A DNA stretch of 11,252 bases from Thermoproteaceae archaeon (GCA_020833025.1 JAJHRB010000050.1:1-11252); one strand, 5' to 3'; positions 9,097-11,252 are shown, counted from the stretch's first letter. The notes: generated from the sequence alone by a model not told the origin. Program-made: numbers and translations.

Positions 9097-9669
9097 GTGG
9101 TCGTCGTTGCCGTCTCGGGGCAGCCGGGGAGCGGCAAGAGCACTCTGGCGAGGGAGATAGCAAGGGCCCTCAGACTGCCGCTCGCGTCTTCCGGCGCTCT
9201 CTTCAGAGAGCTTGCCAGCAAAATGGGATTCGACTTCGTGGAGTTTCACAGGCACGCAGAGCGGAACCACGAAATTGACAGGATGATAGACTCCATGGCG
9301 GTCGAGCGGGCGAGGTCCGGCAGCGCGGTCCTGGAGGGTCACCTGGTCGCGTGGATCGTCAGGCCGTACGCCGACGTGTGCATTTATCTCAAGGCGTCCA
9401 GGGAGGTCAGGGCGAGGAGGGTCGCGCTCAGAGACGGGAGGAGCTTTGAGGAGGCGCTCCGGGAGATAGCAGAGCGGGAGGAGCTCAACAGGAGGCGCTA
9501 CATGGCAATATACGGCATTGACGTAAGAGACCTCTCTATTTTCGACCTCGTCCTCGATACAACTCGCCTGACGATAAACGATGTGGTAAGAATAGGGCTG
9601 GACTTTACCTGCACGCTCCTGAACTTAAAATACGCAAGGGAGATCTGCACGCGTGAAATTCCTCGTTGA
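9097..9669 (+). CDS. cmk: archaeal cytidylate kinase
   Basis: P-loop VSGQPGSGKST, SSGALFRE, IDRMID, LEGHL, YLKAS and RY..IYGID..DLSIFDL. It follows rpl34e, the usual archaeal order. Confidence 0.92.
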   Translation: MVVVAVSGQPGSGKSTLAREIARALRLPLASSGALFRELASKMGFDFVEFHRHAERNHEIDRMIDSMAVERARSGSAVLEGHLVAWIVRPYADVCIYLKASREVRARRVALRDGRSFEEALREIAEREELNRRRYMAIYGIDVRDLSIFDLVLDTTRLTINDVVRIGLDFTCTLLNLKYAREICTREIPR

Positions 9670-10705
9670 GTGCACCGCCAGCACCAGGAAGCCGCCGACA
9701 GGGAGGAGGGTCGCAGTAGTGGGCGCAGGCCCGGCAGGCCTCGGCGCCGCGGGAGTCCTGGCGTGCAGGGGACACGAGGTTCACGTCTACGACGCCCTCC
9801 CGGAGCCCGGAGGCCTGCTGATTTTCGGAATCCCGCCGGAGAGGATGCCGAGAGAGAGCGTCAGGAGGGGCGTCGCCGAGCTGAGAGGTGCCAGCGTTGT
9901 GTTCCTCACCTCGACGTTTATCAGCTGCGGCGCGCAGCCCCAGCGGGAGCACGTGGCGCTGCTCTTCGCGCAGCGGCTCCTGAGGCTGGAGGAGTTGGCG
10001 CGCGAGTACGACGCCGTGATCATAGCCACGGGGGCCTGGAGGAGCAGGGCGCTGAGAGTTCCCGGCAGCGATCTTCCCGGAGTTTACAGCGCGCTGGACT
10101 TCATAGTCCGCGCCCGCGCGCACCAGCTCGGTTACCTGCCGAGAGAGCAGGTCCTGCCAGTCGGCAGGAGAGTTCTTGTAATCGGCGGCGGGCTCGTCGC
10201 GGTTGACGCCGCGCTGGAGGCCGCGGCGCAGGGCGCCAGAGAGGTAATCGTCGCGTACCGCCGCACGGCAGGCGAGGCTCCTGCCGGCAGACATATGATC
10301 GAGCTGCTCAAATCTCGCGGGATTAAGTTCCTGGAGCTCGTGACCCCCGTCGCATTCACTGGCAGGGATCGGGTGGAGAGGGTTAGGTTCGTGAGAGTGA
10401 GGCTCGGGGCTCCCGACAGCTCGGGGAGGCCGGCGCCGGAGCCCGTTCCCGGCAGTGAGTTCGACGAGGCATTCGACACCGTGCTGCTCGCAGTCGGCGA
10501 GCTGCCGACGCCGCCCGGCCTGTGCCTCGGCGTGGAGCTGGGGCCAGACAGCGCCGTGAGAGTAGACGAGAGAATGAGAGCCGGGAGGGAGGGCGTGTTC
10601 GCGGCGGGCGACGTGGTAACGGGGCCATCGACGGTTGGGATGGCGTTCAGCTCCGGCGTGAGGGCGGCGAGATATGTCGACGAGTACCTCTCCGGGGTCT
10701 ACTGA
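9653..10705 (+). CDS. GltD/SudA-like FAD/NAD(P)H oxidoreductase lacking the N-terminal Fe-S domain
   Basis: FAD motif VVGAGPAG, GGLLIFGIP, ATGAW, NAD(P) motif IGGGLVAVD followed by YRR, and FAAGDV. The start overlaps the cmk end by 17 nt. Confidence 0.88.
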   Translation: MKFLVECTASTRKPPTGRRVAVVGAGPAGLGAAGVLACRGHEVHVYDALPEPGGLLIFGIPPERMPRESVRRGVAELRGASVVFLTSTFISCGAQPQREHVALLFAQRLLRLEELAREYDAVIIATGAWRSRALRVPGSDLPGVYSALDFIVRARAHQLGYLPREQVLPVGRRVLVIGGGLVAVDAALEAAAQGAREVIVAYRRTAGEAPAGRHMIELLKSRGIKFLELVTPVAFTGRDRVERVRFVRVRLGAPDSSGRPAPEPVPGSEFDEAFDTVLLAVGELPTPPGLCLGVELGPDSAVRVDERMRAGREGVFAAGDVVTGPSTVGMAFSSGVRAARYVDEYLSGVY

Positions 10706-10803
10706 GCGGCGCCGCGATGCGGCAGGCCCAGAGCCGGCGCGGGGAGGCCGGCGGCCCGGCCGGGAATTTGAGCTGCCGGACCCCGCCGCCCCTCAGCTAT
10801 TTA

Positions 10804-10818
10804 GAAAAATTTAAAAAG
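10804..10818 (+). promoter_or_regulatory. strong BRE/TATA promoter upstream of the tRNA 5' fragment
   Basis: GAAAAA followed by TTTAAAAAG, the same 9-mer as the rpl34e TATA. The first T is 29 nt before tRNA position 1. Confidence 0.8.
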
Positions 10819-10838
10819 TCGTGCGGCGAGATACCGCG

Positions 10839-10862
10839 AGCCCGGTCGTCTAGCGGTCAAGG
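10839..10862 (+). tRNA. 5' fragment (positions ~1-23) of a tRNA-Gln-like gene; no anticodon arm or T-arm in cis
   Basis: AGCCCGG TC GTCT AGCGGTCAA GG gives an acceptor 5' strand, U8, D-stem GUCU and D-loop A14 G15 G18 G19. A at position 1 fits the archaeal tRNA-Gln A1-U72 pair. Similarity breaks at 10863, where A24 is expected. I found no GTTCRAATC on either strand. Confidence 0.7.
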
Positions 10863-10889
10863 GGCCAGTAGGCGGCCCGGGCGGCGGCT

Positions 10890-10914
10890 CCCGGGGCGGC
10901 ACGCCTGCCCCGGG
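10890..10914 (+). other. GC-rich hairpin downstream of the tRNA fragment
   Basis: CCCGGGGCGG-CACGC-CTGCCCCGGG forms 10 bp with one G-U pair. Confidence 0.65.
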
Positions 10915-11024
10915 CTCTGTACTCTCGCAGCAGCGCTCCAACAAAGCCCGCACGTACTCCCCACCCTCCTGACGTTCATCGCGCAGAAGGTCGCGGGAGA
11001 GCGCGGGCCGTACGGGGACTAGGC

Positions 11025-11252
11025 TTAGCCGCCCTTCTTGACCAGCTCCAGCAGCAGTTTCTGTATCTCCAGTAGTGTAGTCTGCACGGCGTCTATTCTC
11101 TTATTGGTCTCCAGTAGGGCTGCCTGAACGGCGTCTATTCTCTTTGCGATCTCGTCTATTCTCCTGTTCGTCTCGTCTATGCGCCGGTCAAGCCTGGCGA
11201 TCTCTGCCCGCACTTCCTTCAGCTCGCCCCTCACTTCTCTCAGCTCGCCCGC
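11025..11252 (-). CDS. paREP15-like coiled-coil repeat protein, 5' end outside the window
   Basis: The frame is open to the window edge: AGELREVRGELKEV...ETNRRIDEIAKRIDAVQAALLETNKRIDAVQTTLLEIQKLLLELVKKGG. The family name comes from recalled resemblance only. Confidence 0.7.
   Translation of the reverse strand, partial: AGELREVRGELKEVRAEIARLDRRIDETNRRIDEIAKRIDAVQAALLETNKRIDAVQTTLLEIQKLLLELVKKGG
11066..11250. repeat. 21-nt and 42-nt period intragenic repeats encoding heptads
   Basis: A 42-nt period pair at 11066-11102 and 11108-11144; CTCGTCTAT at 11151 and 11172; CACTTCyyTCAGCTCGCCC at 11211 and 11232. Confidence 0.85.

Follow-up and report, generated by a model that had tools for sequence, protein, structure and literature searches.

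A Probable Split, Trans-Spliced tRNA-Gln Joined between Positions 21 and 22 in a Thermoproteaceae Archaeon

The window, which is the whole 11,252-nt stretch of archaeal DNA that was analyzed, carries at positions 10839-10920 what is probably the 5' gene piece of a split, trans-spliced tRNA-Gln(CUG). The probability of this reading is put at about 0.88, based on sequence comparison. The remaining part of the tRNA-Gln is located on another contig and has a tail matching that of the 5' piece, so that the cell would have to join two RNAs. The two gene pieces together give one complete cloverleaf tRNA.

Genome and Neighborhood of the 5' Piece

The genome under study, designated as G000, is an archaeal MAG of 1.56 Mb in 126 contigs, with 62.6% G+C and a completeness of 94%. 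Its contig C14 is identical with the whole window. The comparison set was composed of 28 other genomes from the family, which are labeled G001, G003, G012, G013, G014, G041, etc. The genes in the window encode an XPD-like helicase, a topoisomerase, Dph2, HerA, EF-1alpha, L34e, a cytidylate kinase, and an oxidoreductase, all of which are housekeeping genes, and no integrase was found in the gene content of the whole window. The oxidoreductase gene (9653-10705) is located upstream of the promoter of the 5' piece. On the other side, a convergent gene on the minus strand terminates at 11022, 100 nt past the 5' piece. This minus-strand segment (11022-11252) corresponds to the C-terminal part of a coiled-coil repeat protein, whose paralogs are present on C47, C19, and C61. 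The read depth is elevated 2-10 fold over the segment, and every assembly breaks there. One open reading frame on the plus strand (10522-11022) overlaps the 5' piece, and was rejected as a gene; it has no Pfam match and is not called in the public assemblies.

The possibility that assembly or binning joined a tRNA 5' end to an unrelated sequence is hardly credible. The two Gln genes share repeats of 24-39 nt, which could confuse a short-read assembler, and the pieces are close to contig ends, but the region 10300-11181 is covered colinearly and without joints by an ENA assembly and by Logan contigs from four public runs in two studies (DNA metagenome runs from hot springs, the only listed runs that contain the locus, whose contigs show colinearity only). 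The promoter, exon, trailer, and flanks are reproduced with 0-4 differences in five independent assemblies. Besides, a chimera would not yield the matching pairs of trailer and leader, or the correctly spaced promoters, that are described below.

Promoter, Exon 1, and Trailer on Contig C14

A putative BRE/TATA promoter, AGAAAAATTTAAAAA (AGAAAAA-TTTAAAAA), was read from the sequence at 10803-10817 on the plus strand. Between the end of TTTAAAAA and A1 of the tRNA at 10839 there are 21 nt, and the corresponding spacing is 20-23 nt in several contiguous tRNA genes of G000 inspected by eye, such as those on C100, C89:52603, and C125. The motif agrees with the promoter motif of 28 contiguous tRNA genes in the genome.

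Exon 1 of tRNA-Gln(CUG) is 22 nt long (10839-10860, plus strand), and corresponds to Sprinzl positions 1-21. It reads AGCCCGG-TC-GTCT-AGCGGTCAA, and consists of the acceptor 5' strand, U8 and C9, the 5' strand of the D stem, and the complete D loop. A single difference from positions 1-22 of the relatives' intact tRNA-Gln was observed, U for C at D-loop position 20. From 10861 onward, the sequence departs from tRNA and continues as a GC-rich trailer. The first-pass annotation of this DNA had described a promoter, a 5' end resembling that of a tRNA, and a sudden change to a GC-rich trailer, all of which were found where it had placed them. It had also given the tRNA match as 24 nt (positions ~1-23). 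The assignment to a tRNA-Gln exon holds, but the length does not; the exon is 22 nt at 10839-10860, and G10861 and G10862 are trailer bases that equal the mature G22 and G23 by chance only.

The 3' end of the exon and the beginning of the trailer include the first strand of a predicted bulge-helix-bulge (BHB) motif. GGUC at 10855-10858 (+) is the exon strand of a 4-bp helix H, the same H as in the cis introns of relatives, and pairs with GGCC at C89:418-421. It is followed by the 5' splice-site bulge A A / G at 10859-10861 (+), where cleavage is predicted after A10860 in the register of the relatives' cis introns. GGG at 10862-10864 (+) would constitute the outer helix h' with CCC at C89:415-417, as do the covarying h' helices of 2-5 bp in the cis introns. 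The next 8 nt, CCAGTAGG (10865-10872, plus strand), remain unpaired as an internal loop of the trailer, and alignment A1 shows their homology with the beginning of the cis introns (GGCCACGG...). Then comes one strand of the address helix, CG plus GCCCGGGCGGC (10873-10885, plus strand), which is predicted from complementarity and cofolding to pair with C89:400-413 through 13 bp with one bulged A. By alignment, the address helix has its homolog in the 5' half of the stem of a 51-nt cis intron. The piece is closed by a GC-rich terminal hairpin with an 8-bp stem and a 9-nt loop, and then CTCT (10890-10914, plus strand), and this hairpin is conserved in a paralogous piece on C28. No oligo-T terminator was found downstream of the C14 piece.

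ARAGORN and Rfam recognized no tRNA within the window. The 392 nt that remain before the end of C14 do not contain exon 2, as had been stated before from the window itself. A permuted-gene layout was not observed either, with no tRNA 3' part anywhere in the window.

The Partner on Contig C89

In the whole of G000, a T arm followed by CCGGGCT was found at exactly two places, C89:470 (+) and C19:707 (-). Both of these 3' pieces end with ...GGTTCGAATCCCGGCCGGGCTACCA, and both are without exon 1. Each is preceded by a CTTAAAAA box and then by a leader of ~23 nt. The leader on C89 is GCCGCCCGGGC-A-CG-A-CCC-GGCC-AT, and G22 follows at C89:424. GCCGCCCGGGC is the reverse complement of the C14 trailer, and is located at C89:400-410, ~22 nt downstream of the TATA box. 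The first 14 nt of the leader pair with 10873-10885 of the window. The tRNA body on C89 starts at G22 and ends with CCGGGCTACCA. Its anticodon is CUG, and it contains a 16-nt intron of textbook BHB type at 37/38.

The first-pass annotation had proposed a search of the genome for the reverse complement of the trailer, and the match at C89:400-410 in front of a tRNA body is the outcome of that search. It had expected GACC, 2 nt, and a body starting near G22; the 2 nt (AT), the start at G22, and the CCGGGCTACCA end are as expected, while GGCC, with one G·U pair, takes the place of GACC. Among the three junctions it had considered, 21/22 proved to be right, and 22/23 and 23/24 did not.

The junction motif consists of H = GGUC/GGCC (4 bp with one G·U), the bulges AA/G and AU/G, and h' = GGG/CCC. 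The exon-side helix h is weak, and thus the motif formed by C14 and C89 belongs to the relaxed HBh' type. The cofold gain of C14 and C89 is -18.1 kcal/mol, against a mean of -7.5 for shuffled leaders, and 2 of the 300 shuffles reach the observed value. The 11-nt core of the complementarity is not unique and occurs 8 times in G000. In cofolds of the whole pieces at minimum free energy, the acceptor stem and the long trans helix are formed, but the BHB is not, because GC-rich alternative pairings compete near the junction. Therefore, the register of the BHB rests on the comparison with cis introns.

A 12-nt perfect complement of the trailer (10875-10888), CGGGCGGCGGCT, was also seen in the leader of a tRNA-Leu(CAA) 3' piece at C34:~22700. 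It may be due to chance in GC-rich sequence, or may reflect cross-talk.

When exon 1 from C14 was joined to exon 2 from C89 and the cis intron was removed, ARAGORN recognized the product as a 76-nt tRNA-Gln(ctg) with a regular cloverleaf. With the partner, its complementary leader, and this joined product, the earlier interpretation as a split tRNA-Gln is supported. The boxes before all four Gln pieces, two 5' and two 3', are BRE/TATA-like and of the tRNA type, and agree in motif and spacing with those of the 28 contiguous tRNA genes. In the 3' pieces the start is predicted at the first bases of the complementary segment. Each Gln piece appears to have its own promoter.

The Second Pair, on Contigs C28 and C19

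BLAST of the region revealed a paralogous 5' piece with a promoter of its own at C28:34809-34730 (-). Its exon is the same as that on C14, except for C instead of U at D-loop position 20, and its trailer is related. The C28 trailer CGGTCTGGGCGGC and the C19 leader GCCGCCCAGACCG are perfectly complementary over 13 bp. The 13-mer of the C19 leader is found only twice in 1.56 Mb, in the C19 leader itself and, as the complement, in the C28 trailer. The cofold gain of this pair is -22.2 kcal/mol, compared with a shuffled-leader mean of -5.4, and none of 300 shuffles reaches it.

The anticodon of the C19 body is UUG, and the body is interrupted by two cis introns. One, of 19 nt at 31/32, shows a complete BHB, and the other, of 24 nt at 37/38, is less regular on the h' side. 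C28 and C19 joined in silico give a 76-nt tRNA-Gln(ttg) with a regular cloverleaf (ARAGORN). This UUG product is identical, letter for letter, to the gene of the same-genus relative G012.

Two compensatory changes distinguish the trans helices of the two pairs: C-G and C-G in C14/C89 correspond to U-A and U-A in C28/C19. These changes between paralogous pairs indicate that the trans helix is under selection. The 5' pieces on C14 and C28 are alike from +1 through CCCGGGCTCT, and not beyond. This extent of likeness suggests that there was one split, followed by duplication, and that the partners then co-evolved, with the order of events deduced from the alignment.

Contiguous tRNA-Gln Genes in the Genome and Its Relatives

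No contiguous tRNA-Gln was found in the 126 contigs of G000 (94% complete) by the RF00005 profile at E <= 1, by BLAST with a relative's gene, or by a pattern search that allowed 0-60 nt of intron. When an intact tRNA-Gln from the same genus was used as a query, positions 1-24 mapped only to C14 and C28 in G000, and positions 38-76 showed 100% matches only at C89 and C19. The first-pass annotation had asked whether an isoacceptor is otherwise missing, and this is the case for the assembly, where no contiguous or cis-intron tRNA-Gln is present and both Gln isoacceptors are split.

The pieces themselves are invisible to standard searches. RF00005 at E <= 1 detects none of the four Gln pieces in G000, and ARAGORN misses all four as well as the Rfam tRNA model does, so the genome looks devoid of tRNA-Gln. 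The tRNA counts used for grading MAG quality would consequently be too low for such lineages.

Contiguous tRNA-Gln genes are present in 26 of the 28 relatives, and the two genomes without one are 61% and 91% complete. Most relatives have a cis intron at the 21/22 site. Nine of the contiguous genes are intronless there, and the others are interrupted by a cis intron of 15-51 nt precisely at the A21/G22 boundary. In all of the 17 distinct cis introns that were parsed, GGCC (positions 18-20a) pairs 4/4 with GGCY located 2 nt before G22. The bulges in these 17 introns are AA/N and NN/G. If the cis introns are cut out in the shared register, the sequence equals that of the intronless genes. As intron removal reproduces the intronless genes, the splice register is fixed, and hence the junction in G000.

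The same-genus MAG G013 contains one contiguous tRNA-Gln(UUG). In addition, locus L006 (G013:C81:29987-33013) carries a piece at G013:C81:31513 (-) that is composed of a promoter, Gln exon 1, and a non-tRNA trailer with a hairpin and a T-run terminator. The reverse complement of this trailer was searched for as the mark of a partner, and the sole near match, G013:C6:77, is unrelated and lies upstream of another tRNA.

These data bear on the reading of the C14 piece as a dead relic, that is, a tRNA-Gln 5' fragment left by rearrangement or by the integration of a mobile element, with the working genes in the unassembled 6%. tRNA genes are common sites of rearrangement and integration, partial tRNA fragments are present in Aeropyrum, the MAG is 94% complete, and G013 has a similar piece of promoter and exon 1 whose partner was not found there. 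Nevertheless, a relic is quite improbable. The exon is the same as in the functional genes of relatives except for one D-loop base, and the promoter is intact. The complementarity of trailer and leader is kept through two double changes between the paralogous pairs. The 3' pieces, which are without exon 1, keep perfect bodies, intact cis-intron motifs, and an encoded CCA. The fragment does not resemble an att site, either; the assembly contains no intact tRNA-Gln, and the window consists of housekeeping genes without an integrase.

The Tail of the 5' Pieces

Both Gln 5' pieces (10886-10920 of the window; C28:34760-34728 (-)) end with the conserved GC-rich hairpin and then CCGGGCU-CU. In both, the 7 nt that precede CUCU complement the 5' strand of the acceptor stem. 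An origin of the tail 10886-10920 as a decayed T arm and acceptor strand, through duplication and degeneration, was considered and rejected. In semi-global alignments of the tail with the tRNA 3' part, 525 of 1000 and 163 of 1000 shuffles reached the observed score, and since the score is no better than that of shuffles, such an origin is unsupported.

The hairpin and the CCGGGCU/AGCCCGG pairing would also be expected from a stand-alone small RNA, in which a tRNA-like 5' fragment and a terminal hairpin serve a regulatory or decoy role. The 5' piece folds stably as a monomer (-55 kcal/mol), and the final 7 nt and the conserved hairpin fit this role. However, it leaves unexplained the matched leaders of the partners and the BHB register, and the two 3' pieces would then have no source for their exon 1. 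The CCGGGCU end is missing from the G013 piece, and the likeness of the tail to the tRNA T arm and acceptor is not above the shuffled controls. A stand-alone small RNA is highly unlikely.

Probable Origin from a Cis Intron

Metagenome contigs were scanned for exon 1 followed by GGGGCCA, and 17 loci were obtained. In thirteen of them, a contiguous tRNA-Gln gene is interrupted at 21/22 by a 51-nt intron, and shorter cis introns of the same family are present in two others. The family member G041 carries the same 51-nt intron at 21/22. This intron forms a long hairpin. Both G000 trailers align with its 5' half, up to ...GCGGTCCGGGC, and both G000 leaders with its 3' half (GCCCGGACGC-AG-CCCGGCTAT). 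The likeness stops at the hairpin loop (alignments A1 and A2). Because the two stem halves match the trailer and the leader, the gene is likely to have been broken in the intron loop. The split genes look like an intron-containing gene that was broken in the loop of its intron and gained a new promoter before the 3' part. The C28 piece retains a TrmO-like neighbor gene, which is also beside the contiguous tRNA-Gln in the same-genus genomes G001, G003, G013, and G014, and the synteny at C28 stops at the tRNA.

One family therefore has, at the same site, no intron, an intron of 15-32 nt, a hairpin intron of 51 nt, and a gene broken in the hairpin loop. It is an unusually clear evolutionary series for the Gln split. 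This series from intron to split directly supports an origin of present-day split tRNAs from genes with introns, as opposed to a survival of ancestral half genes.

If the pieces were neighbors across a contig gap, they would belong to one long precursor with a very long cis intron at 21/22. All four Gln pieces are indeed located 0.3-2 kb from contig ends, three of them less than 700 nt from the end, and the halves of the split tRNA-Asp of Aeropyrum and Thermosphaera are only ~160 nt apart. This arrangement is improbable, however. Each 3' piece has its own TATA of the tRNA type, with the start placed at the complementary segment, and the convergent minus-strand gene terminates 100 nt past the 5' piece. 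No overlap exists between the end of C14 and the start of C89, and C14 terminates within the multi-copy coiled-coil gene family. Up to the end of C14, exon 1 is not followed by exon 2, unlike in a cis-intron gene, where both share one transcription unit. Even if the pieces were co-transcribed, they would still be spliced via the same helix and bulges.

Proposed Processing and Splicing Enzymes

We infer the transcription starts and the annealing, cleavage, and ligation in vivo from the sequences of the separate pieces, and the trans-spliced tRNA-Gln would be produced as follows. Transcription of the 5' piece from its own BRE/TATA would begin at A1 or beside it, and give a 22-nt exon with a trailer of ~60 nt. 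The C89 gene would be transcribed from its own TATA as a leader of ~23 nt and exon 2 from G22 to CCA, including the 16-nt intron at 37/38. Annealing of the two RNAs would involve the 13-bp trailer/leader helix with its single bulge, the acceptor stem of 7 bp, and the D stem, and a BHB would form at the junction of the annealed C14 and C89 RNAs. The splicing endonuclease would then cut both bulges, and RtcB would join A21 to G22; the cis intron of C89 would be removed likewise. The ligated junction is expected to be ...GGUCAA joined to GGAUGCGGGGCUCUGG. The paralogous pair of C28 and C19 would yield tRNA-Gln(UUG) in the same manner.

The enzymes for these steps were searched for in G000. Both the N-terminal and C-terminal domains of EndA are encoded at C61:40093-40611, and a weak second EndA-like frame is present at C29:11828 (19 bits). 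RtcB is encoded on C60. In the relatives, cis introns at the 21/22 site are spliced. Judging from these genes, G000 appears to encode a splicing endonuclease able to cut non-canonical sites, as well as the RtcB ligase. The RtcB gene, at C60:4614-7331 (+), is a single open frame of 961 aa. An insert of ~450 aa, possibly an intein, divides its Pfam match into two parts (2-55 and 46-426).

Other Candidate Fragmented tRNA Genes

Pieces of other tRNA genes were recognized in G000. For tRNA-Leu, there are two promoter-driven 5' pieces, whose exons end in a D-loop GGTCAA context, and four promoter-driven 3' pieces (CAA, UAG, CAG, and GAG), whose leaders are complementary to the 5' trailers through 10-11 nt. 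These two 5' and four 3' pieces are located at C89:44350 (+), C89:55050 (-), C34:22766 (+), C89:48546 (+), C89:53517 (-), and C102:3212 (+). For tRNA-Asn, the pieces are at C20:13302 (-) and C74:5823 (+). The 5' trailer CGGGTCCCGAGAC and the leader of the 3' piece are perfectly complementary over 13 nt, and the 3' piece is promoter-driven and on a different contig from the 5' piece. Promoter-driven 3' pieces without a nearby 5' strand were observed for Arg(UCU) at C13:7369 (+), Lys(UUU) at C81:468 (-), Trp(CCA) at C28:19278 (-), and a Ser-like tRNA at C12:11377 (+).

By a crude pattern, ~18 of 48 CCA-ending tRNA 3' ends have no recognized 5' start within 700 nt; this number includes cases at contig ends and acceptor-stem introns, and the pattern misses a contiguous Leu gene on C100.

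Two further features of tRNA genes were noticed. A family of ~17-nt introns in the T loop at 56/57 (TTC/GGGGAGAGCCCGCCCAG/AAAT) is common to many different tRNA genes, and these introns explain why the tRNA finders miss those genes. Carriers are at C28:35903-35958 and at least nine other places: C89:48797, C89:52502, C102:2869, C74:17774, C46:16120, C13:7130, C125:3461, C29:15217, and C72:22537. In tRNA-Glu at C19:16028 (-) and G013:C35:1-150, the acceptor 5' strand is apparently broken after position 3 (...GCC / CCGGTAG), which fits the 3/4 intron reported for Thermoproteales.

The odds are moderately better than even that the Gln split is one case of a genome-wide shattering of tRNA genes, which would also include at least Asn and four Leu isoacceptors. 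Split class II tRNAs are said to be unknown so far (PMC4390854), and the Leu pieces would then be the first. The split tRNAs of the genome would also outnumber the six of N. equitans or C. maquilingensis. If the other pieces of G000 hold up, this would be the most fragmented tRNA gene set yet seen. If, moreover, the genus is Pyrobaculum, as appears from the data, the shattering would be in a family whose cultured members reportedly had none.

Comparison with Known Split tRNAs

Split tRNAs have been known since 2005, from N. equitans, C. maquilingensis, and four Desulfurococcales. The reviewed ligation sites of split tRNAs are 25/26, 29/30, 30/31, 32/33, and 37/38. Cis introns at 20/21 and 22/23 are listed for Crenarchaeota (PMC4090602). 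The Gln site in G000 is between the 22nd and 23rd nucleotides of the gene, which is 21/22 in Sprinzl numbering. No report of a split at 21/22, or of any split tRNA in Thermoproteaceae, was found in the literature, in line with the earlier suspicion that this junction is undescribed. Chan, Cozen and Lowe (2011) reported trans-spliced tRNA in none of five Pyrobaculum genomes (PMC3218864). The mechanism proposed for G000 is that of known split tRNAs. What is new is the junction 21/22, where the D loop meets the D stem and the 5' exon is 22 nt long. If the split is real, 21/22 would be the most 5'-proximal ligation site known, and two Gln 5' pieces whose exons differ in one D-loop base would have evolved distinct address helices.

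The split tRNAs of C. maquilingensis (2009; PMC4033280, PMC4090602) share many features with those of G000. Both organisms are free-living and presumably belong to the same order, Thermoproteales. In both, the pieces appear to have their own promoters, complementary flanks, and a BHB at the boundary, the split sites are the cis-intron sites of relatives, and the flanks resemble the introns of relatives. C. maquilingensis also has a short 5' piece (positions 1-25), with tRNA-Glu split at 25/26. In G000, the junction is 21/22 and the tRNA is Gln; the 5' exon of 22 nt is therefore shorter than the 1-25 piece. Each isoacceptor in G000 has its own 5' piece with a diverged address helix, whereas one constitutive piece is shared in C. 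maquilingensis. The Gln(UUG) 3' piece of G000 contains two further cis introns, unlike C. maquilingensis.

The tRNA-Gln(UUG) of N. equitans (Randau et al. 2005; PMC3218864) is similar in that a tRNA-Gln is made from two separately transcribed pieces with GC-rich complementary flanks, and the splicing endonuclease is used; for G000 these steps are predicted. N. equitans belongs to another phylum and has the reduced genome of a symbiont, and its tRNA is split at 32/33 in the anticodon loop. That split was experimentally verified, whereas the one in G000 is predicted from sequence.

The tRNA-Asp(GUC) and tRNA-Lys(CUU) of Desulfurococcales (PMC3218864) are, like the G000 case, recent and lineage-restricted splits in crenarchaea. 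They were likewise deduced from contiguous orthologs and from synteny broken at the tRNA. Their junctions are different, 37/38 and 30/31, and there is one split tRNA per species.

The closest counterpart is the cis D-loop intron in tRNA-Gln/Glu of Thermoproteaceae (20/21 or 22/23 class, PMC4090602), which has the same site, the same H (GGCC/GGCY), the same bulges, and h'. Its 51-nt version is homologous in sequence to the G000 trailer plus leader. In the cis-intron genes, the exons are in one transcription unit, 15-51 nt apart, whereas in G000 exon 2 is encoded elsewhere, behind what appears to be a promoter of its own.
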